From: Alphaproteobacteria bacterium
GTDB taxonomy: Bacteria > Pseudomonadota > Alphaproteobacteria > Bin95
Length of the DNA stretch: 64,000 nt
Reading direction: 5' to 3'
Assembly: GCA_963422665.1 (NCBI GenBank)
Contig: OY730441.1
Location: 715,411-779,410 of the forward strand
A model generated the notes under the pieces. The model was not told where the DNA came from and made no database searches. It saw only the letters and a list, made by a program, of their open reading frames with translations. The translations under genes and the position numbers were made by a program. Of the stretch, positions 9,736 through 27,787 are shown piece after piece. How positions within the stretch are numbered: the stretch's first letter is position 1; each line of letters begins with the position of its first letter.

Positions 9736-11096
9736 GTGCCAACCTCCTTCGTTACGGGAATGCTGCCGACCGGGCCGGTGGCGGCCCAGCCGGGCAGAAT
9801 GGCGGAGAACATGCCCGCGCCGCCGCCGGCGCGCACGATCAACAGGCCGCCCTCGCGCAGCTTGGGCGCGCCGTGGTCCGGCTCGTCGAGCGCGGCGCGG
9901 AGCGCCGCCTCCAGGTCCTCGCGCGACCAGCCGGCGGCCCGGAAGACGCGGTCATGCTCCGGGGACACGACGACCACGGCGTCGATATGGCGCCGGTTCC
10001 GGTTCTCCAGGCCCCGGAACACATCGGCGAAGGTCTCCACCAGGGCGTCGGGCGTACGGGAGTCCTGGTCCACCACCCCCATCACGCCGTAGCCGGCAAA
10101 CAGCGTGACGGCCGAACGCCCCGCGCCCGCGCCCCGGCTTTCGGAGAGCGGCGGCCAGGCCGAACCCTCCTCGTCCTCGGCGAAGCAGAAGGTGTATTTG
10201 CCGGGATTGCCGAGCGCGGCCCGGTCCACGCCCTGCGGCTTGCCGCCGCCGACATTGCGCACCACCAGTTGCAGCGCCCGGCCGACGGTGGCGTTGGCGC
10301 GGTTGCCCTGCCCGAGCGCGTTGCCCTTCGCGTTCATGCCGATGGCGCGGCGCACCGGCCCGTTCACGATGACAATGGGGCCGATATAGTAGGTCGTCGC
10401 AAGCACGCCGTGCAGGCAGAAGCCGTCGTCCAGCGCCGCCTCGACCGCCGCCAGCACGACCGGCAGGTATTCCGGCTTGCAGCCGGCCATCACGGCGTTG
10501 ACCGCCACCTTCTCCACCGTGCAGGGCTGGAGGTTCGGCGGCGCGAGGCCCAGCACTTCGCCCGGATCGCGCACCGTGCCGTCGAGCATCGCGAGCACCC
10601 GCGCCTCTGTCGGCGGCGCCACCGGCAGCCCGTCCGACCAGCCGCGGTCGTAGGCGGCCTCGATCTCGTCCTCCAGCGGCGCCAGCGGCACGCGGCGGGA
10701 CTTGAGGCGCGTCGAGCCGAAGCGCGCGGCCAGCGCCTCCGGCATTCCCGGCTCCACATTCTTCGCCCCACAGCCGGGACGGAAGGGCGGCAGGCCGGCG
10801 CCGAGGCCGTCAAGACCCGTCAGGCGTTCCCACTCGGCGCGGTCCCAGCCCCAGGTTCGCCCGACCTCGTCGCCGTCCTCCCGCCGGATCAGGGTCGGCA
10901 CGATCTCCACGCCGAGGCGGAAGGACCGTTCGAGCCCCTCGTCGAGCGCGCCGGACACGCTTTCAGGGAAGGCGGGGTCGTCCTGCGTCCACACGTCGAG
11001 CGCAATCCCGGAGTCCGCCAGCGCGGCATAGACCGGCTCAAGCAGGGCGCAGGTCGGGCAGTCGCGCTTCACGACCAAGGTAAGCTGCATCGTCAT
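9732..11096 (-). CDS. thioredoxin-fold (CPTC) domain protein with a large uncharacterised C-terminal domain
   Basis: 454 aa. Its N-terminus is MTMQLTLVVKRDCPTCALLEPVYAAL. Its stop overlaps the start of the UGSC gene (ATGA overlap), so the two are probably co-transcribed. Confidence 0.5.
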   Translation of the reverse strand: MTMQLTLVVKRDCPTCALLEPVYAALADSGIALDVWTQDDPAFPESVSGALDEGLERSFRLGVEIVPTLIRREDGDEVGRTWGWDRAEWERLTGLDGLGAGLPPFRPGCGAKNVEPGMPEALAARFGSTRLKSRRVPLAPLEDEIEAAYDRGWSDGLPVAPPTEARVLAMLDGTVRDPGEVLGLAPPNLQPCTVEKVAVNAVMAGCKPEYLPVVLAAVEAALDDGFCLHGVLATTYYIGPIVIVNGPVRRAIGMNAKGNALGQGNRANATVGRALQLVVRNVGGGKPQGVDRAALGNPGKYTFCFAEDEEGSAWPPLSESRGAGAGRSAVTLFAGYGVMGVVDQDSRTPDALVETFADVFRGLENRNRRHIDAVVVVSPEHDRVFRAAGWSREDLEAALRAALDEPDHGAPKLREGGLLIVRAGGGAGMFSAILPGWAATGPVGSIPVTKEVGT

Positions 11097-11141
11097 GGCG
11101 CGGTCACGCTAGCGCATCCGCCCGCGCCTGTCTTGCCGGAA

Positions 11142-12713
<1,572 letters not shown>

Positions 12714-12917
12714 TAAAGGCCTCGAGTCGCGGGTTCGGGGCGCCGGAACGGCTATCGCGCCTTTTATGCAAGCGGCATACCCTTTGCAATGCGCCGTCGT
12801 GACGCGCCGATGACGGTCTTGCGCGGAATTCATGTGCCATTCGTCGGAATTCCGCCATATTGCATCCGGAGACTCGGTGTTCCCGATGCTGCATGTCCGC
12901 GGAAGGGTCGGCACTCC

Positions 12918-13607
12918 ATGAAACACAAGATCGCCCTCGTCGATGACGATCGCAATATCCTCACATCCGTGACGATGGCGCTCGAGGCGGAAGGCTTCGA
13001 TGTCCACACCTATGTGGACGGCCAACAGGCCTGGCCGGCATTACGGAACAACAGCGTCGATCTGGCCGTCCTGGACATCAAGATGCCGCGCATGGACGGG
13101 ATGGAATTGCTGCAGCGCCTGCGGGCGAAGACCGCCCTTCCCGTCATTTTCCTCACCACAAAGGTCGAGGAGCGGGATGAGGAACGCGGGCTGAACATGG
13201 GGGCCGACGACTACATAAAGAAGCCGTTTTCGCAGCGCCTGCTGATCGCCCGCATCCGCGCCCTGTTGCGCCGCAAGGAGCTGGACCGGGAAGGCGGCGC
13301 CCGGAATATGCTGGCGCGCGGCGACCTCGCCGTCGATCCGGAACGCTATCTGTGCACCTGGAAAGGCGAGACGGTGAAGCTCACCGTAACCGAGCTCCTG
13401 ATCCTGGAGTCGCTCGCCTGCCGGGCCGGCCATGTGAAGACCCGCGACCAGTTGATGACGGCCGCCTACGGCCTCGACGCCATGGCCAACGACCGGGTCA
13501 TCGACAGCCACATCAAGCGGATGCGCCGCAAATTCCGCGCTGTGGACTCGACCTTCTCGTCGATCGAAACCCTTTATGGCGGCGGATACTGCTACCGTCC
13601 GTCATAG
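12918..13607 (+). CDS. chvI: OmpR-family response regulator ChvI
   Basis: It has a receiver domain ([10 protein letters not shown]...[11 protein letters not shown]) and a winged-helix C-terminus. It sits at the conserved pckA / chvI-chvG position. Confidence 0.88.
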
Positions 13608-13614
13608 CCGCAGG

Positions 13615-15243
13615 ATGGCCCGGCACGGCGGCGGCGCGGCGGTCCGACGCAGGGCGAGGCGATGGTACCGCTCTCCGCTGATGCGCCGCCTTCTGGCGGT
13701 GAACCTGCTTGCGCTCGTTATCCTGGCGGCGAGCCTGCTCTATCTCGGAGGCTACAAGCGCGAACTGATCGAGACCGAACTCCGCCTGGTCGAGGCCAAG
13801 GGCCGGACCATCGCGGTTGCCTTGGGCCATGCGTCAACCGAGCTTCTGGCCGAAGGCGAACCGGCTCTCGATACGAAGGGCGCAGAACCCCTGCTGCGGC
13901 GGCTCATCGAGGAGTCGAGCCTGCGCGTGAGGATGCGGGTGCGGGTGTTCGGACCGGACGGGACCCTCCAACTGGACAGCCGGCGGTTTTCCGGCGTCGG
14001 CGACGCGGTGGAAAGCGAGCCCCTGCCCCCGGCCGGAAGCTGGAACATTCTCGGCGCGCCGCTGCGCTGGATGCTGGGGCTGTTCGACCTTGCCTTCAGG
14101 GAGCTGGAAACAATCGATCCCTATGTGGAGCGCGCCGAACAGCCGGCCTCGGACTATCGCGAGGTCGAGGGCGCGTTGCGCGGGGAGACGCGCCAGGTCG
14201 TCCGCTCGCTCGGCGCAAGGGGCCTGGTGCTGAGCGTCGCCCTGCCGATCCGGGACTTCAAGCGCGTGGTCGGCGCGGCGATGGTCTCGGCCGACGGCCG
14301 CGCCATCGACGAGGCCGTCATCGAGATCCGTCTGAACATCCTCTCGGCCGCCGGCGTCGCGCTGGTCGTGACCGTCCTGCTCACGATCTACATGGCGCGC
14401 GGTATCGCGACCCCGTTGCGGGACCTTGCCGCGACTGCCGAGCGCGTTCGTCCCGGTTACGGCCGGGTGGATATCCAGGAGCTGAGCGGGCGCAATGACG
14501 AAATCGGCGACCTCTCCGCCGCGCTGCGCCGGATGACCCATGCACTCTGGGAGGGGATGGAAGAGACCGAGAAATTCGCCGCCGACGTGAGCCACGAACT
14601 CAGGACGCCGCTGGCCTCCACCTACAGCGCGGCCGAGACCGCCATGCGCGAGGACGATCCGGCGAAGCGGCGCAAGCTGATGCGGATCGTCCTGGACGAT
14701 GTCAGGCGCCTCAACCGGCTGATCGACAGCGTGGCGGACTTCTCCAGCCTCGGCGCCCAGTTTTCGCGCGTGGAAACCCGGCCGGTCGATATGCGGAAGA
14801 CGGTCGAAGCCTGTGTCGCAGCCGAAGCGCCGCCGCTGCCGGTGCTGGCGGTCGAACCGGACGAACCGCTCGTTGTCCGCGGCCTGGAAGAGCAGCTCGT
14901 GCGGGTCGTCCGCAACCTGATCGACAATGCCAGGTCGTTCTCTCCCGCGGCAGGGGGCGTGCGGCTTTCGCTTGCGCGGCAAGGGGACGAGGTGGTTCTT
15001 CGGGTGAACGATGACGGCCCCGGCATCCAGGCCGGCAAGGAGGAGACCATCTTCGACCGCTTCTATACCGACCGTCCCGAAGCCGACCGACAGTCCGACA
15101 GGCATTCGGGCCTCGGTCTCTCGATTGCGCGCGATATCGTCAGGCTCCACGGCGGCAGCATCGGCGCCTCCAACCGGCCCGGCGAGGGCGGCGCCGTTCG
15201 GGGCGCCCGGTTCGAACTCCGCCTGCCGGCGGCAGACGCCTGA
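13615..15243 (+). CDS. chvG: sensor histidine kinase ChvG/ExoS
   Basis: It has two TM segments, a periplasmic domain, an H-box (HELRTPLAS) and an HATPase_c domain. Of the start options I favour 13615; the ORF track begins at 13576 and overlaps chvI. Confidence 0.8.
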   Translation: MARHGGGAAVRRRARRWYRSPLMRRLLAVNLLALVILAASLLYLGGYKRELIETELRLVEAKGRTIAVALGHASTELLAEGEPALDTKGAEPLLRRLIEESSLRVRMRVRVFGPDGTLQLDSRRFSGVGDAVESEPLPPAGSWNILGAPLRWMLGLFDLAFRELETIDPYVERAEQPASDYREVEGALRGETRQVVRSLGARGLVLSVALPIRDFKRVVGAAMVSADGRAIDEAVIEIRLNILSAAGVALVVTVLLTIYMARGIATPLRDLAATAERVRPGYGRVDIQELSGRNDEIGDLSAALRRMTHALWEGMEETEKFAADVSHELRTPLASTYSAAETAMREDDPAKRRKLMRIVLDDVRRLNRLIDSVADFSSLGAQFSRVETRPVDMRKTVEACVAAEAPPLPVLAVEPDEPLVVRGLEEQLVRVVRNLIDNARSFSPAAGGVRLSLARQGDEVVLRVNDDGPGIQAGKEETIFDRFYTDRPEADRQSDRHSGLGLSIARDIVRLHGGSIGASNRPGEGGAVRGARFELRLPAADA

Positions 15244-15689
15244 TGCGGGTCCACGCAAGCTGCATCGCGTTCGAAGGCGGGGGCGTGCTGCTGCGCGGAC
15301 TGCCGGGCGCGGGCAAGTCCGACCTTGCGCTCAGGGCCGTCGAGGTGGGCGCGCGGCTGGTTGCCGACGATATCGTCGCGCTCGACCTTCGCGGCGGCCG
15401 CGTCTGGGCGAGCCCCCTGCCCCGGGCCGGCGGCAGGCTGGAAGTGCGCGGGGTCGGGATCGTCCGGCTGCCGGCGCTGGACGGCGCGCCGCTGGCGCTG
15501 ATCGCCGACCTTGCCGCGCCGGAGCGGCTGCCCGAGCGCGAATTCGAGTCCGTCCTGGGCCGATCGGTGAGGCGTATCCGCTTGGCGCCGTTCGAGATTT
15601 CGGCAGCGATCAAACTGCGTCTTGCCGCACATATGGCATCGGAGGATAAAGGCGCGGCGCGAGTGTCGGACGAAGATGACGGTCGGTAG
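15243..15689 (+). CDS. hprK: HPr kinase/phosphorylase, short alphaproteobacterial form
   Basis: 148 aa with a P-loop (LLRGLPGAGKSDLAL) and EVRGVGIV. It overlaps the chvG stop. Confidence 0.8.
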   Translation: MRVHASCIAFEGGGVLLRGLPGAGKSDLALRAVEVGARLVADDIVALDLRGGRVWASPLPRAGGRLEVRGVGIVRLPALDGAPLALIADLAAPERLPEREFESVLGRSVRRIRLAPFEISAAIKLRLAAHMASEDKGAARVSDEDDGR

Positions 15690-16614
15690 CAAATCAACCC
15701 GCAGACGCCTCGTGCTGGTGACCGGCATGTCCGGGGCCGGGCGGTCCATCGCCTTGAAGGAACTCGAGGACCTCGGATTCGAAGCGATCGACAATATTCC
15801 GCTGGCGATGCTGGACAGCATCGACGCGGACCCCTCCGGGCGGGCGCTGGCAGTGGGGATCGACACCCGCGCGCGCGGTTTCGCCATCGAGGGGGTGCTG
15901 GAGCGCATAACGGGCGCCGCGACCCGCTTCGATATCGTGCCGCTGTTCCTCCACGCCGACGAGGAAGCGTTGACACGGCGCTACCGGGAGACGCGCCGGC
16001 GGCACCCGATGGCGCCGGACGGCAACCCCATCGACGGCATCGGGCGGGAGCGCCGACTGCTCGAGCCGCTGCGCCGCGCCGCGGATATCGCCATCGACAC
16101 GTCGCTGCTGACCGCCCATGACCTCCGCCGCCTGCTGAGGGCGCATTTCACGTCCGATCCGCAGGAAGGCATGTCGATTTTCGTCACCTCCTTCTCTTTC
16201 CGCCTGGGCCTGCCGCGCGAGGCGGACCTCGTGTTCGACATGCGGTTCCTGTCCAACCCCCACTACATCGATGCGCTGCGGCCGTTGACGGGCCGCGACG
16301 AAGCGGTCGGCGCCCATATCGCGGAGGACCCGGACTTCGCGCCCTTTCTCGAAGGGGTCGGCGGACTGCTGTGGACGCTGCTGCCCCGCTATGCGCGCGA
16401 GGGCCGCGCCTATCTGACGGTAGCGGTCGGCTGCACCGGCGGCCGCCACCGCTCGGTCTTTACCGCCGAAGAGCTTGCGCGGCTGTTGCGCGAACGAGGC
16501 TGGCGGGCCACGCTCACCCATCGCGACCTCGATGAGGCGCCGGCGCCGATGCAGGAAGATTCGAAGGCGTCCGGCGAACCGCTCGCCGCGCTGGAAACGG
16601 AGAACAGCCCATGA
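15676..16614 (+). CDS. rapZ: RNase adapter / P-loop nucleotide-binding protein RapZ (YhbJ family)
   Basis: VLVTGMSGAGRSIALKELEDLGFEAIDNIP...TVAVGCTGGRHRSV. I place the start at the MTVGSK ATG. Confidence 0.78.
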   Translation: MTVGSKSTRRRLVLVTGMSGAGRSIALKELEDLGFEAIDNIPLAMLDSIDADPSGRALAVGIDTRARGFAIEGVLERITGAATRFDIVPLFLHADEEALTRRYRETRRRHPMAPDGNPIDGIGRERRLLEPLRRAADIAIDTSLLTAHDLRRLLRAHFTSDPQEGMSIFVTSFSFRLGLPREADLVFDMRFLSNPHYIDALRPLTGRDEAVGAHIAEDPDFAPFLEGVGGLLWTLLPRYAREGRAYLTVAVGCTGGRHRSVFTAEELARLLRERGWRATLTHRDLDEAPAPMQEDSKASGEPLAALETENSP

Positions 16615-17027
16615 TCGGCCTGGCTCTGGTTACGCATGGCCGCCTGGCGACCGAGCTGCTTGCGGCGCTCGAACATGTCGTCGGGCCGCAGGAGCAGGTC
16701 TCGGCCGTGTGCATCGGCCCCGACGACGACATGGAGGACCGCCGGGCGGAAATCGCCCGCGTTGCCAGGGCCCTCAATACCGGGAACGGTGTCGTCCTGT
16801 TGACCGACATGTTCGGCGGCACACCCTCGAATCTCGCCATTTCGGTTCTGGGCGCGTCCGACAGGGGCCAGGTCGAGGTGATCGCGGGCGTCAACCTGCC
16901 GATGCTGGTCAAGCTCGCGACCTGCCGCCGGCACAAGACGCTCGCCGAGGCCGTCGCGGATGCCGAGGAGGCCGGGCGGAAATACATCCAGGTCGCCTCG
17001 AAACTGCTCGCCGAGGCGCCCGGCTGA
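16611..17027 (+). CDS. PTS EIIA component, mannose family
   Basis: 138 aa (MIGLALVTHGRLATELL...VVLLTDMFGGTPSN). Confidence 0.8.
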   Translation: MIGLALVTHGRLATELLAALEHVVGPQEQVSAVCIGPDDDMEDRRAEIARVARALNTGNGVVLLTDMFGGTPSNLAISVLGASDRGQVEVIAGVNLPMLVKLATCRRHKTLAEAVADAEEAGRKYIQVASKLLAEAPG

Positions 17028-17028
17028 C

Positions 17029-17295
17029 ATGCCTTCGGCGCATCTGCGGATCGTCAACGAACGCGGCCTGCACGCGCGCGCCGCGGCGAAATTCGTGGCG
17101 CTTGCCGGGAGCTTCGACGCCGAGGTGCGCGTCACCCATCACGACACCACCGTGCCGGGCGTCTCGATCATGGGCCTGCTGCTTCTCGGCGCCGGCAAGG
17201 GCTGCGAAATCGAGGTGGTTTGCGAAGGGGCCCAGGCGGCGGCGGCGCTGGCCGCGCTGCAGGCGCTGGTGGCGGACGGCTTCAGGGAGACCTGA
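17029..17295 (+). CDS. phosphocarrier protein HPr/NPr
   Basis: 88 aa (LRIVNERGLHARAAAKFVALAG...GCEIEV). The start follows the EIIA stop directly. Confidence 0.8.
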   Translation: MPSAHLRIVNERGLHARAAAKFVALAGSFDAEVRVTHHDTTVPGVSIMGLLLLGAGKGCEIEVVCEGAQAAAALAALQALVADGFRET

Positions 17296-17382
17296 GCGCG
17301 TTCCGGTTGAAGGAGACGGAACGGGTTGCTATACGCGCCGGGCTCCGGCCGGAGCTTCCGACACGCAAGGATCTATCCTCCA

Positions 17383-18669
17383 ATGCCCGATTATGAGGTT
17401 GCCGATATCGCGCTTGCCGACTGGGGCCGCAAGGAAATCGCCATCGCCGAAACCGAAATGCCGGGGCTGATGGCGATCCGCGAGGAATACGGGCCCGCCC
17501 GGCCGCTGAAGGGCGCGCGCATCGCGGGCTGCCTGCACATGACCATCCAGACCTCGGTGCTCATCGAGACGTTGAAGACGCTCGGCGCGGAAGTGCGCTG
17601 GTCGTCCTGCAATATCTTTTCCACGCAGGACCACGCCGCCGCGGCGATGGCGGCGGCCGGCGTGCCGGTCTTCGCCTGGAAGGGCGAGACGGAGGACGAA
17701 TACTGGCGCTGCGTGAAGCGCAGCATCGAGGGGCCGGACGGCTGGCGTCCGAACCTGCTGCTGGACGACGGCGGCGACCTCACCAGGCTCATGCATGACG
17801 ACTACCCCGAGCTGATGGCCGATGTCCGGGGCGTTTCCGAGGAGACGACGACCGGCGTGCTGCGCCTCTACGAGATGGCGAAGACCGGCTCGCTCGCCTG
17901 CCCGGCTTTCAATGTCAACGACTCGGTGACGAAATCGAAGTTCGACAACCTCTACGGTTGCCGCGAGAGCCTTGTGGACGGCATCAAGCGCGCCACGGAC
18001 GTGATGATCGCCGGCAAGTCCGCGCTGGTCTGCGGCTATGGCGATGTCGGCAAGGGATCGGCGGAAAGCCTGCGCAGCCAGGGCGCCAGGGTCATGGTGA
18101 GTGAGATCGACCCGATCTGCGCGCTCCAGGCCTGCATGGCCGGCTACGAGGTCGTCCGCCTGGACGATGTCGCGGACCGGGTGGATATCGTGGTGACGGC
18201 GACCGGCAATACCGACGTCGTGACCATCGACCATATGCGCGCCATGAAGGACCGGGCGATCCTTTGTAATATCGGCCATTTCGACAACGAGATTCGGGTG
18301 GACGCGCTGCGAAACCTGGCCTGGCACAATGTCAAGCCGCAGGTGGACGAGGTCGAATTTCCCGACGGCAAGAGGCTCATCCTGCTGGCGGAGGGCCGGC
18401 TGGTGAATCTCGGCTGCGCCACCGGCCATCCGAGCTTCGTGATGTCCGCCAGCTTCTCCAACCAGGTGCTGGCCCAGATCGAACTCTGGACCAACAGCGC
18501 GCAATACGACCGGCAGGTGCATGTGCTGCCGAAACCTCTCGACGAGAAGGTGGCCATGCTGCACCTGTCGAGGCTCGGCGCCCGGCTGACGGAGTTGAGC
18601 TCCGCCCAGGCGGACTATATCGGCGTCCCGCCGGCCGGCCCGTTCAAGCCCGACTACTACCGCTACTGA
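17383..18669 (+). CDS. ahcY: adenosylhomocysteinase
   Basis: It starts [28 protein letters not shown] and has an NAD-binding GYGDVGKG motif. Confidence 0.9.
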
Positions 18670-19487
18670 CCGTCAACGGGGGTGCGCAGCAGGCCGTCCA
18701 GAACGGCCGTGAGAAGGGCGATGTCCGCCGGGCGGCTGAGCCGGTGGTCGCCGTCCTTGACGAAGACCGTCCGCACATCCCGGCTCTCCAACCGCTCCGC
18801 CAGGCGCAACGATTCCCGCCAGGGAACGGCGTCGTCGCGCATCCCGTGCAGGAGGCGCACCGGGCGGCTTACGGGGATCGGGCGGTCCATCAGGCAATGG
18901 CGCTTGCCGTCCTCGATCAGCGCCCTCGTGATCGTATATGGCCCGTCCCCGTATTCGCTCGGGCGCAGGAAGGAGCCGTGCTCGTCGAGCGCATGGCGCT
19001 GCTCCGGCGTCAGTTCCGTTTCCATGCGCCGCACGAAATCGGGCGCCGGCGCAATGCCGATGAGCGCATGGACCCGTTCCGGACGGGCCAGCGCCGCAAG
19101 CAGCATCAACCAGCCGCCCATGCTGGAGCCGACCAGCGCTTGCGGCCCCTCAGTCAGCCGGTCCAACATGTAAAGCGTGTCGGCAAGCCAGTCCGAGAGC
19201 ACCGCCTCCTCGAACCGCCCGCCCGAGGCGCCGTGGCCGCGATAGTCGAACCGCAGAAAAGCATGGCCGCGCCGCCGGCAGAAGGTGTCCAGGGCGCTCG
19301 CCTTCTCGCCCGTCATGTCGGACATGAAGCCGCCGAGGAACACCACTCCGGGCTCCCGCCCGACCGCGCGGCGACAAGCCAGCGGCGGCCCGTCCGGGCG
19401 GGTCAGGAACTCGGGCGCGGTATTCCCGGCGTCATGCACGGGTCTATCGTCCCGGTTTTGAAGTTCGTGTGACTTCGATTGAGGCAT
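18663..19487 (-). CDS. alpha/beta hydrolase fold protein
   Basis: It has a GxSxG nucleophile elbow (VGSSMGGW) and a downstream His. It converges on and overlaps ahcY. Confidence 0.7.
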
Positions 19488-19842
19488 GGGGACCTCTTCG
19501 GCCCGACCCTCCTGTCGTCATGCCCGGACTTGTTCCGGGCATCTCTCTCCACCGCTTCCGCCGGAGAGAGAGCGCCGCGCCTCGCGAAACGGTCCAACAA
19601 CCCGTATTGGCGAATAAGACTTCTCTCCTGAATTGCTTTACGGAGGCTTGGATCGTCTTTTCCCTTACAATCATGAAGCAGCTATATTTATGCCGGATTC
19701 GATTTCCTGGACCGAAGACCGAAATGCTCAACTCTTTGCCTGACGCCCTCTTTGGTTATGGAATCGCTCATCGCGTTTCCACAGGCGCAGCCGATCCTCT
19801 GCTCCCGGTATTCCTCTCGCTCATCTTCCCCTTCTCCCCTGA

Positions 19843-19889
19843 CCGGCGCAGCATCACACCGGATTGCTGTGACTATCCGATACCTGTAG
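19843..19889. promoter_or_regulatory. complex inverted repeat in a 420-bp divergent intergenic region
   Basis: ccGGATTGCTgtgacTATCCGATAcctgtAGCAATCGGATAg. The 3' arm can pair with either upstream half-site. It sits in the AT-richer spacer between the hydrolase and the GT4 gene. Confidence 0.3.
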
Positions 19890-19910
19890 CAATCGGATAG
19901 CCGCGCCGCC

Positions 19911-21041
19911 ATGCCCTCATGCCGCTCCCCCGCCGAAGCCTGGCTCAAGGGCAAGACAATCCTGCAAGTGCTGCCGGCGCTGGAGGCGGGCGGCGTCGAA
20001 CGGGGTACGCTGGAGATCGCCGCCACGCTCCGCGAAGCCGGCGCCCGGGCGCTGGTCGCCTCCTCCGGCGGACGGATGGCGGCCGGGCTCGGCGCGGACC
20101 ATATCGCCCTGCCGGTCCACACGAAAAACGCCGTCGGCCTCTGGTGCAATGCGGGCCGTCTCAAGGCGCTGATCGCGCGGGAAGGCGTGGACCTCGTCCA
20201 TGCCCGGTCGCGCGCGCCGGCCTGGAGCGCCCGGTCGGCGGCCCGGCGCGCAGGGGTTCCGTTCGTCACCACCTTCCACGGCGCTTACAGCGCTGGCAGC
20301 GCCGCCAAGCGCGCCTGGAACCGGGTTATGGTCCGGGGCGACCTCGTTATCGCCGTCTCGGACTTCATCGCGGCGCATATGCGCGAAACCTATCGCTGCC
20401 TCCCGGACCGCATCCGGGTCGTACATGAGGGCATCGACGCGGCGGCCTTCGATCCTGCCGCCGTCGCGCCCCGCGAGAGGGCCGCCCTGCGCGCGGCGTG
20501 GGCCGTCCCGGAAGTCGCGCGGGTCGCGCTGCTGCCGGGGCGGCTAACGCGCCTCAAAGGCCACGCCGTGCTCATCGAGGCGATGCGGCGGCTCGCGGAC
20601 CCGGCGCTCGTCGCCGTGTTCGCGGGCTCGGATCGGGGCCGGGACGCCTACCGGCGGGAACTGGAGGCGCAAGCGCGCCGCCTGCCGGTGCGCTTCGCCG
20701 GACATATCGACGATGTGGCGGCCGCCTATGCCGCGAGCGATGTCGTCATTTCCGCATCGGTCCAGCCCGAATCCTTCGGCCGGATCATGGCGGAGGCCGG
20801 CGCCATGGGCCTTCCCGTCGTCGCCAGCGACCATGGCGGCGCGCGCGAAATCGTGCGCCACGGCGAGACCGGGTGGCTGGCGGCGCCGGGCGATCCCGCC
20901 GCTCTCGCCGAGGGCATCCGCAGCGCCCTCGCCGCTGCGGGCCCCGCCCTTGCGGAGAAGGCGCGCGCGCATGTGCTCGCCCGATTCACGCTGGCGCGCA
21001 TGTGCGAGCGCACGCTCGCGGTTTACGGGGAGTTGTTGTGA
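19911..21041 (+). CDS. glycosyltransferase family 4 (GT-B fold)
   Basis: It has an N-terminal sugar-binding domain and a C-terminal Glycos_transf_1 region (GRLTRLKGH...EPESFGRIMAEAGAMGLPVVAS). Confidence 0.8.
   Translation: MPSCRSPAEAWLKGKTILQVLPALEAGGVERGTLEIAATLREAGARALVASSGGRMAAGLGADHIALPVHTKNAVGLWCNAGRLKALIAREGVDLVHARSRAPAWSARSAARRAGVPFVTTFHGAYSAGSAAKRAWNRVMVRGDLVIAVSDFIAAHMRETYRCLPDRIRVVHEGIDAAAFDPAAVAPRERAALRAAWAVPEVARVALLPGRLTRLKGHAVLIEAMRRLADPALVAVFAGSDRGRDAYRRELEAQARRLPVRFAGHIDDVAAAYAASDVVISASVQPESFGRIMAEAGAMGLPVVASDHGGAREIVRHGETGWLAAPGDPAALAEGIRSALAAAGPALAEKARAHVLARFTLARMCERTLAVYGELL
20941..21030. repeat. 3' end of the GT4 gene; a direct repeat partner is at 21473..21535
   Basis: gccccgcccttgcggagaaggcgcgcgcgcatgtgc...gagcgcacgctcgcggtttacgggga recurs downstream of small gene C, with a 29-bp internal deletion. 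Confidence 0.8.
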
Positions 21042-21069
21042 CGGGTGTCTGTAGACGCTCTCGTCCCGG

Positions 21070-21092
21070 CCCGGATGTGCTACAAGGGACAC
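21070..21092. promoter_or_regulatory. conserved upstream element shared by paralogs C and D (second copy at 26046..26070)
   Basis: cccggatgtgctacaaggg(a/g)cac followed by ggaaggaccggagagg(t/c)cATG. It lies 31-53 bp upstream of both start codons and contains a TGTGC...GCACA partial palindrome. Confidence 0.45.
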
Positions 21093-21123
21093 GCAAGCGG
21101 TACAGGTAAGGACCGGAGAGGTC

Positions 21124-21470
21124 ATGATGCCGGAGGTGACGATGACCCTTGCCGCCGCAGCGGGCATGTTCGTCGCCCTGGGCGGGCTGATCGTCGGCCT
21201 GTTCCTCTGGCTGCGCTCCGACATGCAGCGCCTGCGCGGCGAATTGAGAGGCGATATCGGAGCAGTCGAGGAGAGGTTGCGCAACAACATCAAGGCAGTC
21301 GGGACGAGATTGCGCGACGATATCAGGGCGGTCGACCGCAAGGTGGACGATCTGGGCGAGCGCGTTACGCAGCTCGGCGGACGAGTGGCGCGGGTGGATT
21401 GGGGAAGCTGGAGTTTCTGAAAGACTTCATTACCCGACGGAACGACCTGCCTCCGGCCCCGGCCGAATAG
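21124..21470 (+). CDS. small membrane-anchored coiled-coil protein (paralog C), with an apparent 1-nt deletion in an A-run near 21405
   Basis: MMPEVTMTLAAAAGMFVALGGLIVGLFLWLRSDMQRLRGEL... is 70% identical to paralog D. The reading ends WGSWSF*, but the +1 frame continues KLEFLKDFITRRNDLPPAPAE*, matching D's C-terminus. Confidence 0.55.
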
Positions 21471-21472
21471 CG

Positions 21473-21535
21473 GCCCCGCCCTTTGCGGAAAGCGCGCGCG
21501 CGCATGTGCGAGCGCACACTCGCGGTTTACGGGGA
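21473..21535. repeat. orphan copy of the GT4 3' end, downstream of cassette C
   Basis: gccccgccctttgcggaaagcgcgcgcgcgcatgtgcgagcgcacactcgcggtttacgggga. Confidence 0.8.
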
Positions 21536-21610
21536 ACCGCCGGCGGAAGGCCTTGACCGGGCCTGTCCCCTGGGGCCATCGTAAGGGCCGCGCCGGACGG
21601 AGAGCATTCC

Positions 21611-22011
21611 ATGGTCGCCGACATCTGGACCGTTATTGGAGCTGCAATTGCGCTCGCGGCCACCAATGTCGGCCTGTTCGCCTGGTTGCGCGCCGACATC
21701 GGCCAATTACGCGCCGAGGTCGGCGAATTGCGTGTGCAGACAGCGGCCCAGTTGGAGGAGTTGCGCGCACAGACGGCGGCGAAATTCGAGGAGGCGCGCG
21801 TGCAGACTGACGCGCTGGGAGCGGAGACAACGGCGAAATTCGAGGAAGCGCGCGCGCAGACGGCGGCCCGGATCAAGGAATTGGGCGGCCAGTCCGCGGA
21901 ACAATTTGCGGCGACGAGCGCCCAGATCGGGCAGTTGCGCGAGCGCATGGCTCATCTCGAGGGCCTCCTCGAAGGGCTGCGCGAGGCTATCGCCGGGCCC
22001 GGGCGGCATGA
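21611..22011 (+). CDS. small membrane-anchored coiled-coil repeat protein (paralog E); the 3' end is uncertain
   Basis: MVADIWTVIGAAIALAATNVGLFAWLRADIGQLRAEVGEL... has 11-aa repeats (ELRAQTAAKFEEARVQTDALGAETTAKFEEARAQTAAR). Its C-terminus LEGLLEGLREAIAG matches paralog A. As given, the frame runs on into the GT2 gene without a stop. One extra G in the run at 21996..21998 would give AIAGARAA*, with the TGA overlapping the GT2 ATG. Confidence 0.5.
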
Positions 22012-22869
22012 CGGAGCGGGAGCGCCCTCACGTCTCCTGCTACATCCGCACCCTCAACGAGGAGACGCGGATCGCGGCCGCCGTCCGCGCCGCCCTGCCG
22101 GTGGCGTGCGAGGTGATCGTGGTCGATCCCGGCTCCATCGACGGCACGGCGGCTGCGGCCGAAGCGGCAGGCGCGCGGGTCGTGGTTTTCGAGGCCGCCG
22201 GATTCAGGGGGGAGGGGTCAGAAGCGCGCCGGCGAGGACGCCTGCCGGCATGACTGGCTTCTGGACCTCGATGCGGACGAGATCGTCAGCGCGGCGCTGG
22301 CGCGCGACATCCGGGCGCTGTTCGCCGCCGGGGAGCCGGATGCGGCCGTTTACCGGATCAGCCTGGTCACGGTCGATCCCTCCGGGCGCATCTGGCGCCG
22401 GTCCCGCAGCCCGCGCCGCGCCAAGCTCTACGACCGCCGCCGGGTGCGGATGCCGGACGACGGCGCCTGGGACCAGCTTCGCCTTCCGGCCGGAATCGCA
22501 GTCGGCGGCCCCCTTGGACCGCTGCTGCATTACGCCTTCGACGACATCGCCCATCTCGCCCGGAAACAGGCGCGCGCGAAGGTCCGGCGCGTCCGCCATC
22601 TCGGCCGCGCCAGGCGGTTGCCGACCGCGGCCCGGGTGTGGTTCGGCTTGCCGTTCTGGTTCCTCAAGCGCTATGTCCTGCGCGGCTTCTGGCGCGAAGG
22701 CGGCTACGGTTTCCTCTGCGCGCTCGCGGCTGCCTACAGCCACTGGCTGCGCTACGCCGTGCTCCACGAACGCCAGTCGCTGCGGCGCACCGGAAGCGAC
22801 CGGGAAGACACCGACCGCCCGGCCCGGCACGGCCCATGGCTGAAACCGGAGCGAATATCGTCACCCTGA
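22008..22869 (+). pseudogene. glycosyltransferase family 2, frameshifted in a G-run at 22207..22217
   Basis: The N-terminus is MTERERPHVSCYIRTLNEE...VIVVDPGSIDGT (frame a). It continues in frame c as QKRAGEDACRHDWLLDLDADE...LHYAFDDIAHLARKQ. The frames join only if gagggg is read as gaggg. Confidence 0.7.
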
Positions 22870-23612
22870 AATGGGGCGACCGTTACGGCCCACATTTTGT
22901 CAACCGGCTTTACAGGGGCGTCAGCATCAATCTAATGAGGAATTTTCGTTTCCTTTGCTTTACGGACGACCCGATCGGGCTGCGGCCGGAAATCGAACCC
23001 TATCCGCTGCCCCGGATCGATCTGCCAGACGAATTCGCGCGGTCGGCATGGCTGAAACTGGGCCTCTTCGGAAACGGCACCGGGGATATGGAGGGAGATT
23101 GCATGTTTCTCGATCTCGACCTCCTGATTACAGGGGGTATCGACTGTTTCTTCGACTACATGCCCGGCAGGAAATGTATCATCCATAACTGGGTCCAGAA
23201 GCATCAGGTTTTCAAGAAGCGGCCTGATGTGGGCAATTCGTCTGTCTTCCGCTGGACCGCAAATACGACACATTACATTGTTGATAAATTCCAATCCGAG
23301 CGGGACTGGGCAATACGGAAGTTTCGCCCCCCGCAAACCTATCTCACCTACAGTCTTGGAGAAAAATACTGGTGGCCCGACGATTGGGTCCGCAGCTTCA
23401 AGCGTCATGCAACGCCAGCATTTCCCTGCAATCTCCTGTTCCCGCCGAAACTTCCGCCCGGAACGCGCATCCTGGTCTTTCACGGCCGCCCCGACCCCGA
23501 CGAGGCGCTGAACGGCCATAGGGCGGCGAGGTTGCACCGGCGCACGCAGCCGGCGCCTTGGATCTCAGATCATTGGCATGACGGGCCGGAAGGAGGATCG
23601 CGGGCGGCATGA
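22836..23612 (+). CDS. putative DXD-motif glycosyltransferase (family uncertain)
   Basis: 258 aa (MAETGANIVTLKWGDRYGPHFVNRLY...CMFLDLDLLITGG). It overlaps the end of the GT2 gene. Confidence 0.45.
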   Translation: MAETGANIVTLKWGDRYGPHFVNRLYRGVSINLMRNFRFLCFTDDPIGLRPEIEPYPLPRIDLPDEFARSAWLKLGLFGNGTGDMEGDCMFLDLDLLITGGIDCFFDYMPGRKCIIHNWVQKHQVFKKRPDVGNSSVFRWTANTTHYIVDKFQSERDWAIRKFRPPQTYLTYSLGEKYWWPDDWVRSFKRHATPAFPCNLLFPPKLPPGTRILVFHGRPDPDEALNGHRAARLHRRTQPAPWISDHWHDGPEGGSRAA

Positions 23613-24337
23613 TCCGAAAGCTGAAGCGAGCGTGCGGCATTCGTTTCTCGACCAAGGCGTTCGCTCGGAATCCCGGCATCCATCTCCGGCAAACGGTCAG
23701 GGGGTTCCGGAGCTTGCGCGACCTGCTCGACGATCTTGCGGACCAACGCCGGATCGTCGTTGTCCAGGTCGGCGCCAATGACGGCGACGATACGCTCGGC
23801 GACCTGATCCGGGACAGGCCGGATCGGATTGCAAACGCCCTGTTGATCGAACCGCAACGGGCCGCGTTCGACCGTCTGGCCGGGCGCACGGAAGGCTGCG
23901 GGGCGGTTGTCTGCCTGAACGCAGCCATCGACCGGCTAGCCGGCGAGCGGATGCTTTATTCGGTCAGGCAGTGCAATCGCGAACGGCTGGGCGACGGCAT
24001 CGCATCCTTCGAGCGCCAGCACGTCGAAAGCGAAATACGGCACGCAACGAAGACAGGCTCCGACATTGAAATTGCAGCCCTGATTGCAGTTGAAACGGTG
24101 CAGGCTGTAACGCTGGAGAACGCTGCCGCTACGGCGGGCATCGGCCGGCCGGATGCGCTTATGGTCGATGCTGAAGGGTTCGACGCGGAAATCGTCCGAA
24201 TGGCGCTTGAGGCCGGATGGCTGCCGACCGTCATCCAGTACGAGCACAAACACCTGACGCAGGACGACCGCCGCAAGCTGTCCAAGGCGTTGACTCAGCG
24301 CGGCTACTGTTTGTGGGCCGACCATGCGGATGTCTGA
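23609..24337 (+). CDS. FkbM-family SAM-dependent methyltransferase
   Basis: VVVQVGANDGDDTLGDLI is the FkbM-type motif. 242 aa. Confidence 0.75.
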   Translation: MIRKLKRACGIRFSTKAFARNPGIHLRQTVRGFRSLRDLLDDLADQRRIVVVQVGANDGDDTLGDLIRDRPDRIANALLIEPQRAAFDRLAGRTEGCGAVVCLNAAIDRLAGERMLYSVRQCNRERLGDGIASFERQHVESEIRHATKTGSDIEIAALIAVETVQAVTLENAAATAGIGRPDALMVDAEGFDAEIVRMALEAGWLPTVIQYEHKHLTQDDRRKLSKALTQRGYCLWADHADV

Positions 24338-24396
24338 GGTTATCGCGTCAGCGGGTTGCGCAGCGGCGCACGATTACGAAGGCCCGCGCGCTTCGG

Positions 24397-25011
24397 ATGA
24401 ACGCAGGAGACCTGCTTCCGGAATCCCGGCTCTGCCTTGCCGGGCGCGAACCTTTCGCAAGGGGCGGTTTCCGGCATTGCTATGTCCACCCCGAAGACTC
24501 CGATTTGTGCGTGAAGGTGCCTGCGCGCCCCGATGACGCGCGCTGCCATGCCGAGCAGCTAAGAGACCTCCTGGACAGCCGGCGGTTGAGGAAATGCGGC
24601 CCGAATGCGGTATTCGACCGTCTCTCCCTCGTGGAAGGGGTCGTCGCGACCGACCTCGGCGCCGGCATCGTCTCGAGATTGTGCCGCGACGCGGACGGTC
24701 GAATATCCGGGAACCTCGCCGAACTGATCCGGTCGCGCGGCCTGACGCCTGCGCTGGTCGAGGCAATGGACGAGTTGAAGGCGTGGCTGCGCGACCGGCG
24801 TCTGCTGACCCGGGATACCGGGCCTCACAATATCGTCGCCATGCGCCGGGGCGAGGAAGAATGGAAGTTGATGATCGTCGAAGGCTGGATCCACCGCAGA
24901 TACGGTTGGCTGGCCCGGCGCAGCCGCTTCGTCACTGACCGCATGATCGACCGCCAATTGCGCAAATTCGACCGGCGCGTCGCAAAGCTGGCCGAACGGA
25001 AGCCGGCCTGA
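24397..25011 (+). CDS. YrbL-like (PhoP-regulatory-network, kinase-fold) protein
   Basis: LAGREPFARGGFRHCYVHPEDSDLCVKV matches the YrbL N-terminal signature (G.ER.CY.HP...C.K). Confidence 0.55.
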   Translation: MNAGDLLPESRLCLAGREPFARGGFRHCYVHPEDSDLCVKVPARPDDARCHAEQLRDLLDSRRLRKCGPNAVFDRLSLVEGVVATDLGAGIVSRLCRDADGRISGNLAELIRSRGLTPALVEAMDELKAWLRDRRLLTRDTGPHNIVAMRRGEEEWKLMIVEGWIHRRYGWLARRSRFVTDRMIDRQLRKFDRRVAKLAERKPA

Positions 25012-25348
25012 CATGCGCCGGCCTCCCGCAACTCGGCCGGGCAAACCGGCCGACAGCCGACCCGGCGACCATTACGGCATGACTTGGCGGTTCAGCCGGC
25101 GCCGGCGGAACGGGCGGTAACGGAGCCGCGGCGAGGGCGCGTCTGTTATTGAATCGGTCGGTTCATTTGCCGCCCGGCCGGAATCTGCGCGCGCAGCTCC
25201 CCTGTCCGCCGCGAGGGCGGGCGCCTCCCGAAAAACAGCCTTTCCAGCGGCCGAACGGCCTTCCGGCTCAAGTCATGCTCTCACACTCTCATGCGCCCGA
25301 AACGGGAATATGGTCATGGCGAATACGGATTTCAATCCCATTCGGGGA

Positions 25349-25762
25349 TTAATCGCCGCCGGGGGACGGGCCGGCCCCCGGAACGGGCCGATTTCGGATC
25401 CGGAGGCGGCGGCGGCCCCTTTTCCGCTTGACGCCGTGGCGTTTGAGGAAGCGCTGGAGCACGCCGTAGCCGAAGTCGAGGCCGCGCGCCCCCAGCGCTG
25501 CCTGCAACGCCCTGACGCTCAGGTCCGGCCTCTCTTCCATAAGGCCGAGAATCGTGTCGCGCTCCGCCTCGACCCGCCCGGAGCGGAAGTCGCCGCCAAG
25601 CGGCAGCGGCTGCACATGGCCCTGCCCGCGCTCCAATTTGCGCCAGTTGGAGATGACGCCGATGCTGACATCGAACAGCCGCGCGGCCTCGCGAAAGGTC
25701 ATCCCCTTGCGTATCGCCGCCAGAACCCGGACCCGCAACTCGACAGGAAGCACTTTGGGCAT
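25349..25762 (-). mobile_element. IS630-family transposase fragment, N-terminal HTH portion only
   Basis: 138 aa (MPKVLPVELRVRVLAAIRKGMTFREAARLFDVSIGVISNWRK...). It lacks the DDE catalytic domain. It sits at the distal end of the glycosyltransferase cluster. Confidence 0.7.
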
Positions 25763-26098
25763 ATCCGCCGGACCTCCCTCGCCGACGAATGCCCGTATGG
25801 CACAAATAAAGAACAAATGAAACCAGCCCGGACCGCGGTGGCGCTCCAGTTTGACATTATCGGGCAGGCGCCAACGAGCAAGGGGCCGGAGCGACGAAAA
25901 GGCGGGAACCAGCGCATGAATTCGGCGGTCCGGATCCATGTGGTCAATCTGGAGGAGGAGACGGAGCGGATGGCCGCCATGACGAGGCGGCTTGTGGCCT
26001 CGACTTGCCGTTTCAGCGCTTCCCCGCCTGGCGCGGCCGGCGGGTCCCGGATGTGCTACAAGGGGCACACTGGCGGGATCGGAAGGACCGGAGAGGCC

Positions 26099-26431
26099 AT
26101 GACGCCGGAGATGATGACGACGCTTGCCGCCGCGGCGGGCATGTTCGTGGCCTTGGGTGGGTTGATCGTCAGCCTGTTCCTCTGGCTGCGCTCCGACATG
26201 CACCGCATGCGCGACGAACTGAAGAGCGATATCGGAGCAGTCGAGACGAGGCTGCGCAGCGAAATCAAGGTCGTGGACGGCAAAGTGGACGCTCTCGGCG
26301 AATGCGTCACGCGGCTCGGCGAACGCGTCACGCAGCTCGGCGAACGGATGGCGCGGGTCGAGGGAAAACTGGAGTTCCTCAAGGACTTCATTACCCGGCG
26401 GAACGACCTGTCGGGCGCGCCGGCCGAATAG
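26099..26431 (+). CDS. small membrane-anchored coiled-coil repeat protein (paralog D, intact)
   Basis: 110 aa (MTPEMMTTLAAAAGMFVALGGLIVSLFLWLRSDMHRMRDEL...LGECVTRLGERVTQLGERMARVEGKLEFLKDFITRRNDLSGAPAE). It contains 21-bp tandem units. It has the same upstream element as C. Confidence 0.6.
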   Translation: MTPEMMTTLAAAAGMFVALGGLIVSLFLWLRSDMHRMRDELKSDIGAVETRLRSEIKVVDGKVDALGECVTRLGERVTQLGERMARVEGKLEFLKDFITRRNDLSGAPAE

Positions 26432-26677
26432 CGGCTGGCGGACTCCATCGCGTTGACGGCATCCGGCCCGGAAGCGGCTCCCCCGATCTGCTGCTGCATC
26501 CGGCCCGGCATATTTTCGGCGGCGTCGTAACCGGAATCCTCTCTCTTTCGCGTCGGCCTCGCTGCGACGGCTTGCGCAACCCGTTGACGCCGGCCCCCGA
26601 GGAAGGCAGGCTCCTCTCTTGTGCGGCTTTCGGACGCGCGCGCGACGAACGCCGAAGACAAGGGAGGAGAACCTTCG

Positions 26678-27787
26678 ATGACAGGATTGAAACGGTTTGC
26701 GGTCTGGTGCTTGGCATTGCTTGCCGGCGGGCTGGTCGCTGTCGCGCCGGCGCGGGATACGCAGGCGCAGGAAATCAAGCTGCAGTTCCAGACGGCGTTC
26801 CCGTCTTCGTTCTACACCCATAACAGTTTCCTGCATTTCGCAGAGCGCGTGAAAGCGATGTCCAACGGGCGCGTCGAGATCGTCGTCCAGCCCGGCGGCG
26901 CGATCGTGCCCTCGTTCGAGCTGCTCGATGCCACGGCCCGCAAGGTGCTGGACGGCGGTTTCTCGGCGGCGGCCTATTATGTCGGCAAGAACCGCGCCGC
27001 CGCGCTGTTCGGCCCGGCGCCGGGCGGCCCGTGGGGCTTCGACTGGATCGACTATATCGGCTGGGTCTATGACGGCGGCGGCCTGGAACTCCACAACCGG
27101 TTCTTCCAGGAGATTCTCGACCGCGATGTCGTCGTGTTCCCGATCTCGCCGGTCGGCAATCAGCCGCTCGGCTGGTTCAACCGCGAACTGAAGGACTGGG
27201 AAGACCTCGCCACGATCAAGTGCCGCGCGACCGGCATCACCGGCGAAGTCATGTCGAAGTCGGGCATGAAGACCGTCAACATGTCCGGCGGCGAAATCCT
27301 TCCCGCCGTCGAGCGCGGCATCATCGACTGCGCCGAATGGGCCGGTCCTGCCGCCGATATCGACATGGGCTTCTACCAGATCCTGAAGCACTATTACCTG
27401 CCGTCCGCGCATGAGCCGGCCACGCTGCTCGAGCTCATCGTCAACGGCGAGGTATGGCGTTCGCTGCCGACGGATATCCAGGAGATCATGAAATCGGCGA
27501 GCTGGGAAGCGACGCTCTGGCAACAGCTCCAGACGCACAGGCTCAACGCCATCGCGATCAAGAAGCTGCGCGACGCCGGCGTCAAGTTCCACAAGACGCC
27601 GGACAGCATCCTCGACGGCCAGATGAGGGCCTGGGAGGAAATCCGCGACCAGGCGGTCAAGGACAATCCCTTCTTCGCCGAGGTGCTGGAGTCGCAACGT
27701 AAATATGCCGAGCAGGTGGTGCCGGGGCGCGTATTCTCCCAGGTCGATTACGACTGGCTGGCGAATTACTACTGGCCCCAGAACTAA
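26678..27787 (+). CDS. TRAP transporter substrate-binding protein (DctP/COG4663-like)
   Basis: It has a signal peptide and a C-terminal ...NYYWPQN. Confidence 0.8.
   Translation: MTGLKRFAVWCLALLAGGLVAVAPARDTQAQEIKLQFQTAFPSSFYTHNSFLHFAERVKAMSNGRVEIVVQPGGAIVPSFELLDATARKVLDGGFSAAAYYVGKNRAAALFGPAPGGPWGFDWIDYIGWVYDGGGLELHNRFFQEILDRDVVVFPISPVGNQPLGWFNRELKDWEDLATIKCRATGITGEVMSKSGMKTVNMSGGEILPAVERGIIDCAEWAGPAADIDMGFYQILKHYYLPSAHEPATLLELIVNGEVWRSLPTDIQEIMKSASWEATLWQQLQTHRLNAIAIKKLRDAGVKFHKTPDSILDGQMRAWEEIRDQAVKDNPFFAEVLESQRKYAEQVVPGRVFSQVDYDWLANYYWPQN

Follow-up and report, generated by a model that had tools for sequence, protein, structure and literature searches.

How does the 3′ end of a gene come to stand twice at one locus, once where it belongs and once, truncated, behind the small gene that follows? 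The question is raised by a glycosyltransferase locus in a stretch of 64,000 nucleotides (nt) from an alphaproteobacterium of the GTDB lineage Bin95 (GenBank assembly GCA_963422665.1, contig OY730441.1, positions 715,411 to 779,410 of the forward strand), which we call the window and in which all coordinates are counted from the first letter. Here an intact gene for a GT4-family glycosyltransferase is followed by a small gene, C, then by a second copy of the GT4 3′ end, then by another small gene, D, and finally by a GT2-family gene. The original prediction took this duplication, together with a similar one beside a small gene B elsewhere in the window, as the sign of a shared insertion mechanism. 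We consider a more ordinary origin probable, in which the second copy is a non-functional fragment of the GT4 3′ end, the scar of a recombination event that joined a GT4-C and a GT4-D haplotype of the same locus. The features on which the argument turns are the following.

19911..21041, forward strand: GT4-family glycosyltransferase, the host gene, intact, 376 amino acids (aa), with a TGA stop at 21039-21041
20940..21041, forward strand: copy 1, the functional 3′ end of GT4 (~100 nt), which closes with a GTTGTTGTGACGG of the C-haplotype kind
20965-20976 and 20994-21005, forward strand: 12-nt direct sub-repeats GCGCGCATGTGC in copy 1, 29 nt apart
21042..21123, forward strand: C upstream region, a GT2-start remnant (GTGACGG...), then the box CCCGGATGTGCTACAAGG and a ribosome-binding site
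21124..21470, forward strand: gene C, of the C/E type, with an N-terminal transmembrane helix, a coiled coil and the conserved C-terminus GKLEFLKDFITRRN
21468..21480, forward strand: recombination joint, where the C tail GAATAGCGG(C) gives way to GT4 sequence from position -100 on, GCGG(G)CCCCGCCC
21472..21535, forward strand: copy 2, a dead, non-coding GT4 3′-end fragment with a 29-nt deletion
21536..21610, forward strand: D upstream region with the GGCCTTGACC box
21611..~22010, forward strand: gene D, of the A/D type, with a transmembrane helix, 11-residue repeats and the C-terminus LEGLLEGLREAIAG
22008..22869, forward strand: GT2-family gene, the original downstream partner of GT4, frameshifted in the window and in the independent assembly L033

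The duplication is real, as had been predicted. The segment 20940-21031 at the 3′ end of GT4 recurs at 21472-21535, just past C; the local alignment of copy 1 with copy 2 scores 88, against a mean of 18.2 (standard deviation 3.0, maximum 28.5) in 300 shuffles, and the flank-duplication test at C gives z = 12.3. With blastn the match falls into two parts, 20940-20976 against 21472-21509 (89% identity) and 20994-21031 against 21498-21535 (97%). The internal deletion that had been described between two sub-repeats is there as well: the gap in copy 2 measures 29 nt, as does the distance between the two GCGCGCATGTGC sub-repeats of copy 1, which would fit a slippage deletion between them. Besides this deletion, the copies differ by indels and one G>A change. 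The strong match ends at GGGGA, 10 nt short of the GT4 stop, and past this point a weaker, haplotype-specific homology carries the diverged GT4 terminus of copy 2 to ~21552. When the window was compared with itself by blastn (E < 1e-4), the only dispersed repeats were the GT4 duplication, a duplication at a restriction-modification (RM) gene, which is the B case, and the pair formed by C and a further small gene, E; the only other self-match in the 64 kb was an internal tandem repeat of a small gene A (4047-4227).

Repeats a few hundred nucleotides apart can come from errors in metagenome assembly, and a mis-joined or otherwise artefactual contig is the first explanation to be weighed. The same structure, GT4, C, dead GT4 end, D and GT2, is found in the independent assembly L033 (ENA ERZ21742408), which is 97.8% identical to the window and has substitutions of its own in copy 2 (2 substitutions in 61 nt and a 2-nt indel). 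The two copies have also diverged from each other, one with a deletion. The recurrence of the structure in L033 therefore argues that the duplication is no assembly artefact, and we give that explanation practically no weight. By the same comparison copy 2 changes at least as fast as its surroundings. Copy 2 was also considered as a structured RNA or regulatory element, which was ruled out by an Rfam scan of 19000-27000 that gave no match, copy 2 included, and by an ordinary fold (z = -0.47). Scans for sigma-70 promoters and intrinsic terminators over 20800-22100 found none.

What does the junction between GT4 and GT2 look like in relatives? We fetched 32 related loci, numbered with the prefix L; the close ones are from Defluviicoccus-like Alphaproteobacteria with the gene order ahcY, hydrolase, GT4, which is common to the orthologues in 13 or more Defluviicoccus-like metagenome-assembled genomes. 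GT4 itself matches the Pfam families Glycos_transf_1 (5.5e-32) and Glyco_transf_4 (2.2e-29). The comparison with empty sites that the original prediction had proposed succeeded at this junction: it is empty in L002, L003, L006 and L012, where the GT4 stop overlaps the GT2 start (GTGA; ctgctGTGAcggattcg...), and in L004 it is empty with ~60 extra nt. For gene B, in contrast, the same search, with the C-terminus of the RM protein against metagenome contigs, returned only non-orthologous loci, with at most 66% identity over the full query. Other relatives are occupied. L001 holds one C-type gene, with a GT2-start remnant on its left and a complete GT2 start on its right, and L005 a C-type remnant. 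In L007 and L009 one D-type gene stands directly 3′ of GT4, the stop of which is lost, with a few extra codons. In L035 (ENA ERZ25070786 ctg149817c, 3890-6299) there are six tandem C-type genes between GT4 and GT2. The window and L033 hold both types.

Set beside these relatives, the window reads as two known arrangements placed end to end. The left flank of C, with the last codons of GT4, its stop and the GT2-start remnant, is colinear with the GT4-C junction of L001 and L005, and the C upstream region recurs in E (26046-26098), L001, L005 and L035. On the other side, copy 2 and the 75 nt before D align colinearly with the live GT4 end and D upstream region of L007 and L009 (60/70 and 58/70 identities, respectively, in the D-upstream part). 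The GT4 copies stop matching exactly at their haplotype-specific ends, which are GTTGTTGTGACGG for the C kind, seen in C-only genomes, and ACCGCCGGCGGAAGGCCTTGACC for the D kind, seen in D-only genomes. Only one adjacency in the window's structure lacks a parallel elsewhere, namely the joint that follows the C stop by 7 nt. The canonical C-type tail continues TAGCGGCTGGCGGA in E and L035, and the window instead reads TAGCGGCCCCGCCC at this point; the C tail GAATAGCGGC, followed by TGGCGGA in E and L035, passes at the joint into GCGGGCCCCGCCC at GT4 position -100, where GT4 itself reads CTGCGGGCCCCGCCC. The joint, GAATAGCGG|CCCCGCCC, has a microhomology of 4-5 nt, GCGG/C. Each of its sides matches an existing arrangement, GT4-C on the left (L001, L005, L035) and GT4-D on the right (L007, L009). 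At the level of the alignments, then, the comparison shows the two haplotypes stacked through one novel microhomology joint. Since both sides are colinear with known junctions and the novel joint is single, the window can be understood as a GT4-C and a GT4-D haplotype joined by one illegitimate crossover; and because the left of C holds GT4's own last codons and stop, the joined pieces would be two chunks of the GT4 locus and not a clean cassette, as we call a small gene with its upstream box.

The most economical route to such a structure would begin with the entry of DNA from a close relative that carries the other haplotype. Homologous recombination, within GT4 or within D/GT2, would account for one crossover, and the second would be illegitimate, either by homology-facilitated illegitimate recombination or by unequal crossover. 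The leftover GT4 end would then lose 29 nt by slippage between the two 12-nt repeats. For homology-facilitated illegitimate recombination, the combination of one homologous anchor with illegitimate joints at microhomologies of 3-10 bp has been documented, according to the summary in PMC6382021 (of de Vries & Wackernagel 2002; Prudhomme et al. 2002; Meier & Wackernagel 2003). The window resembles that process in having a possible homologous side (GT4 or D/GT2) and a joint with 4-5 nt of microhomology on the other, and in the addition of alternative-haplotype DNA beside a conserved anchor. It differs in that the added DNA would be an alternative version of the same locus and not unrelated DNA, which would give a partial duplication of the anchor's end. 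The GT4 locus also bears other marks of exchange. Between 20400 and 20800, GT4 has 40 substitutions between the window and L033, with flanks at ~1%, which looks like a recombination import tract, and the nearest GT4 relatives of the window switch along the gene when identity is followed in a sliding comparison, as in a mosaic. Together these observations argue that the locus exchanges DNA between lineages. The feature, on this reading, is a pseudogene fragment from illegitimate or unequal recombination in a rearrangement-prone glycosyltransferase region.

Several points weigh against the joining of two haplotypes as told here. The direction can be read either way, as a C unit added to a GT4-D genome or as the reverse. 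Sliding identity along GT4 gave mosaicism only and no assignable donor, and did not locate the crossover of the event itself. The GT4-derived part of copy 2 is nearer to the window's own GT4 (39/43, 91% identical) than to the GT4 of L007 (30/43), which would require that the other haplotype came from a very close relative or that gene conversion has since made the copies more alike. At the RM locus the searches turned up no RM-A haplotype. Finally, both duplications in the window are ~100 nt long and each lies ~75 nt before an A/D-type gene, a coincidence that may be due to chance (n = 2) but for which the joining of haplotypes offers no explanation.

A simpler possibility is that the unit made of the last 100 nt of GT4 and one small gene was duplicated in situ, in tandem, and that the two small genes then diverged, or one of them was overwritten through gene conversion by a paralogue, for instance E. 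That segments are duplicated in tandem and amplified by unequal crossing-over is established bacterial genetics, and amplification of such units occurs in this clade, in L035 and in two further loci, L121 and L122, that are described below. Both units, that of C (20940-21472) and that of D (21473-~22005), measure ~533 nt, C and D have in common a 32-nt patch of 88% identity in their transmembrane-coding part, and the 91% identity of the GT4 part of copy 2 to the window's own GT4 is what a local duplication would leave. The proteins of C and D, however, are only ~33% identical, against ~90% DNA identity between the GT4 copies, of which the second is non-coding; the two copies end in different haplotype-specific termini, GTTGTTGTGACGG in copy 1 and ACCGCCGGCGGAAGGCCTTGACC in copy 2; and both the C-only and the D-only arrangement occur in relatives as simple insertions at the junction that is otherwise empty. 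We therefore hold an in-situ duplication to be unlikely. The same comparison can be put in terms of amplification by unequal crossing-over in general. The window is like it in that relatives have arrays of 3, 6 and 9 units, that the units include a piece of the neighbouring gene, and that copy number varies between close genomes. It is unlike it in that the stacked units are different small-gene subfamilies with haplotype-specific GT4 termini, for which reason a single in-situ duplication does not suffice for the window.

The case at gene B, which the original prediction had placed beside that of C, lies at the other end of the window and has the following parts.

4969..9090, reverse strand: type IIG RM gene of the Eco57I family, its 3′ end at 4970-5065 being the functional copy; the L120 orthologue matches PF07669
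4403..4502, reverse strand: dead RM 3′ end, a copy of ~97 nt with 91.7% identity, which includes a stop codon of its own
3951..4328, reverse strand: gene A, of the A/D type, 125 aa, its start ~74 nt after the dead RM stop
4585..4947, forward strand: gene B, of the B type, with a central transmembrane helix and a coiled coil; it converges on the RM gene, the stop of which is 21 nt away

The anatomy that had been described is right here too, and both cases are real duplications of the 3′ ends of neighbours: the RM 3′ end at 4970-5065 recurs at 4404-4499 over 96 nt with 91.7% identity (z = 36). A more elaborate form of the same arrangement is found in L121 (ENA ERZ25070786 ctg142331l, 8736-17685), where nine tandem B-type genes face an Eco57I-type RM gene. 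Six of the nine B units are each followed by a dead RM end of 53-57 nt, which runs from the RM stop codon on and is ~81% identical to the live end, so that the repeat unit consists of the B upstream region, B and the RM end. The RM joint lies at -57 in L121 and at -97 in the window, and because the joints differ, the two RM duplications would be independent events. The genomic context of the RM and B genes in L121, beside an AMP-binding/Fer2/FAD cluster, is unlike that of the window. The pair thus occurs in different genomic contexts, which suggests that RM and B travel together. Look-ups of the exact proteins of the RM/B locus returned the sister strain only.

Do these duplications, then, mark the insertion of cassettes? 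It is conceivable that the small genes move as cassettes by an insertion mechanism of their own, which targets gene 3′ ends and makes a long target duplication of variable length; staggered breaks, template switching, or the integration of a circle with part of the host 3′ end on it would be possible routes. Two cases of ~100 nt occur in one window of 64 kb and are nearly its only dispersed repeats, the small-gene families are multi-copy, and at the GT4|GT2 junction, which has zero length, the insertion points of two cassette types are no more than ~10 nt apart. Short direct repeats are also seen at single insertions: TGACGGAGCGGG stands on both sides of D in L007 and L009 (15/500 shuffles), and in L001 a remnant of the GT2 start lies left of C (4/1000 shuffles). 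To these may be added a further small gene of the window with foreign pieces in its flanks.

26046..26505, forward strand: cassette E, with its open reading frame at 26099..26431, a paralogue of C and of the C/E type

E carries a 5′ fragment of a GT25 gene and a 5′ remnant of a GT2 gene. The fragment (25918-26040) reads through into E, and the source record holds it as a fusion protein of 171 aa, P0001; on the other side the C-type tail of E is followed by ~25 nt of the GT2 5′ remnant (26481-26505).

The observations on single cassettes speak against such a mechanism. At six single-cassette loci no significant long flank duplication was found; those checked were L001 (C-type after GT4), L007/L009 (D-type after GT4), E in the window, L036/L034 (C-type after dnaE2) and L039. 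In L001, in particular, a long copy of the GT4 end behind the lone C-type gene was not significant (113/500 and 696/1000 shuffles). Because single-cassette loci are without it, the long duplication does not mark cassette insertion in itself; it is significant only at C plus D (z = 12), where units are stacked, and in the RM case (z = 36), where they would be stacked too, and the array in L035 is bracketed by a GT4-end duplication of 32-40 nt (0/500 shuffles). The left of C holds the terminal codons of GT4, as in other GT4-C genomes, and no clean cassette end. The length of the duplication is not fixed (about 17, 32-40, 53-57, 97 and 102 nt) and differs at the same target, being 32-40 or ~100 nt at GT4 and 57 or 97 nt at RM. 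The cassettes have no terminal inverted repeats or conserved end motifs, and the flanks of paralogues diverge just outside the upstream box and the stop codon. No near-identical dispersed copies of a cassette were found within the window and the fetched loci, and the paralogues are, judged by their divergence (80% nt identity between C and E, ~29% aa identity between A and D), old. A Pfam scan of the open reading frames around the cassettes found no integrase, transposase or reverse transcriptase, the lone feature resembling an insertion sequence (IS) near them being a frame of 121 aa with only a helix-turn-helix (HTH) domain (25400-25762, reverse strand), which resembles the N-terminus of an IS transposase. 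Like duplications are moreover found around quite different DNA. In L016 a 48-nt copy of the topA 3′ end (MERAVELLA..RRAK; 92% identical, 8587-8634 and 10640-10687) brackets rnr, the gene of RNase R, and in L002 an 80-nt duplication of the GT2-DctP spacer (8005-8081 and 10224-10303) stands around an IS cluster of 2.1 kb. The bracketed 2.1 kb of L002 hold an IS630-like HTH gene and an ISAs1-like transposase.

On this balance we think it improbable that a dedicated insertion mechanism made the GT4 duplication. A bolder form of the idea appears similarly doubtful, namely that the small-gene families (C/E, A/D and B) are undescribed self-propagating cassettes of Defluviicoccus-like Alphaproteobacteria, each an upstream box with one open reading frame, which would home just after stop codons, copy the host 3′ end along and form arrays, with the dead ends as their footprint. 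What remains of the original proposal is that the recurrence goes beyond chance, with two cases in the window and others in L121 and L035; the part that does not stand is the reading of the duplication as a signature of insertion. The cause that the cases have in common is most plausibly ordinary segmental duplication or unequal recombination, acting on genes that stand very close together. The small genes are packed against the stop codons of their neighbours, with 0 nt between them at GT4|GT2 and 4-21 nt between B and RM, which would put breakpoints inside the neighbour's 3′ end. With the small genes and their upstream boxes at 0-20 nt from the neighbour's stop, a duplication or unequal exchange that carries a whole small gene would almost always break within that 3′ end and leave dead ends of variable length. 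Such events would be tolerated, as the upstream copy of the host gene stays intact.

An array without such remnants is known as well. In L122 (3611-4669) three C-type genes follow dnaE2, 12 nt apart, in an operon-like arrangement with a GGAGG site and without host fragments. The gene dnaE2 encodes an error-prone polymerase, and a single C-type gene stands right after it in L036 (5001-5258) and L034 (1386-1583), the source genome included. In the L035 array, two of the six genes are frameshifted and the units, of ~350-500 nt, have an upstream box each; the tail after each unit has an 18/18 match to an internal GT4 segment (3519-3536). A derivation of the C-type upstream box or of the inter-unit spacer of L035 from the GT4 3′ end or the GT2 start was considered and rejected (pairwise p about 0.03-0.5), and a profile of eight upstream regions found no match within GT4.

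Some better known systems leave similar traces. In e14, which sits in icd, and in the islands found in tRNA and tmRNA genes, direct repeats of the target gene's 3′ end bracket the inserted DNA. Direct repeats of this kind are a classical sign of integrative elements, and the GT4-end copies could in principle be the attL and attR sites of a site-specific element with its integrase supplied in trans, comparable to islands that enter a gene 3′ end and supply a substitute for it; as in those elements, the repeat is one of a gene 3′ end, it brackets an insert, and the host gene remains intact. Unlike them, the window has no integrase among the frames scanned and no common core, the repeats are variable, and the targets (GT4 and RM) are unrelated, with duplication lengths that differ even at the same target; the element itself would be ~430 nt long, its insert being one gene of ~350 nt. 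We regard this explanation as very improbable. Target-site duplications of transposons and miniature elements are similar in that an insert lies between direct repeats of the target and that the small units are multi-copy, but the repeats of the window type are variable in length (17-102 nt) instead of short and fixed, and terminal inverted repeats, near-identical copies and a transposase were not found. A diversity-generating retroelement likewise has a near-copy of a gene 3′ end a few hundred nucleotides downstream. In the window, however, the differences between the copies are not adenine-specific, the copy is truncated, and no reverse transcriptase is present among the frames scanned.

The joining of haplotypes favoured here has a practical side. 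Ordinary duplication and illegitimate recombination can leave a signature that resembles a special insertion mechanism, which calls for caution in the annotation of metagenome-assembled genomes and in calling mobile elements. The more notable by-product of the analysis may be the small genes themselves, which form clade-restricted, unnamed, array-forming families of membrane-anchored coiled-coil proteins with marked copy-number dynamics at fixed sites: the site after GT4 has 0, 1, 2 or 6 copies, that after dnaE2 has 1 or 3, and that beside the RM gene has 1 or 9. The B type appears to travel with a type IIG RM gene. If these small proteins act in the cell envelope or in defence, this would be worth testing.

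The window has five of these small genes, A to E, and each encodes a transmembrane helix and a coiled coil. C and E, with 70% aa and ~80% (79.8%) nt identity, are the closest cassette pair in the window, and their subfamily is marked by the upstream box CCCGGATGTGCTACAAGG and the C-terminus GKLEFLKDFITRRN. The A/D subfamily has the upstream box GGCCTTG(A/C)CC and the C-terminus LEGLLEGLREAIAG; the ~29% aa identity of A and D is that of their best local alignment. Among 5.8 billion database proteins, relatives number 35 for the C/E type and 32 for the B type, and the A/D type occurs in several copies per Defluviicoccus-like genome, in addition to matches that are coiled-coil noise. Searches of Pfam, NCBIfam and PHROGs gave no family above threshold for the small proteins, only sub-threshold coiled-coil noise, no source searched had an informative name for any of the families, and a literature search on these genes in Defluviicoccus found nothing. 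The lengths of the proteins vary by whole coiled-coil repeat units. The internal coding repeats are of 54 nt in A (4047-4227) and of 33 and 54 nt in D (21722-21927), and their number depends on the strain, with 125 aa for A in the window and 143 aa in L120, and one 54-nt unit of difference between D of the window and D of L033. Upstream of A-, D- and B-type genes there is a promoter-like pattern, CTTG(A/C)C or CTTGCG, then ~17 nt, then CAT(A/G/C)(C/G)T, which is seen in the window at 4329-4402, 4503-4584 and 21553-21610 and upstream of the A-type genes of L038 and L039. It differs from the sigma-70 consensus used in the promoter scan.

Two of the small genes are damaged in the window. C is frameshifted by 2 additional nt (TT at ~21399), so that frame 1 meets a stop at 21420, and a 1-nt deletion at ~21998 removes the stop of D, the frame of which continues to 22843. 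In L033 both genes are intact, C as an orthologue of 114 aa (P0004) and D with a TGA that overlaps the ATG of GT2. A general assembly error as the source of the two frameshifts was considered and is unlikely, since the indels relative to L033 lie only in cassette or non-coding parts and ahcY, the hydrolase gene and GT4 are intact. GT2 is frameshifted in both the window and L033 and is therefore probably a pseudogene in both, and the small genes together with GT2 may be decaying in the lineage of the window.

Further downstream the region is rearranged as well. Between GT2 and DctP lie ~3.85 kb (22790-26650) without counterpart in relatives, with an FkbM-type methyltransferase, a YrbL-like protein, the IS-like HTH fragment already mentioned, and the GT25 fragment and GT2 remnant that flank E. 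L033 is without ~1.7-1.9 kb of this insert (roughly 22757-24425/24663 of the window).

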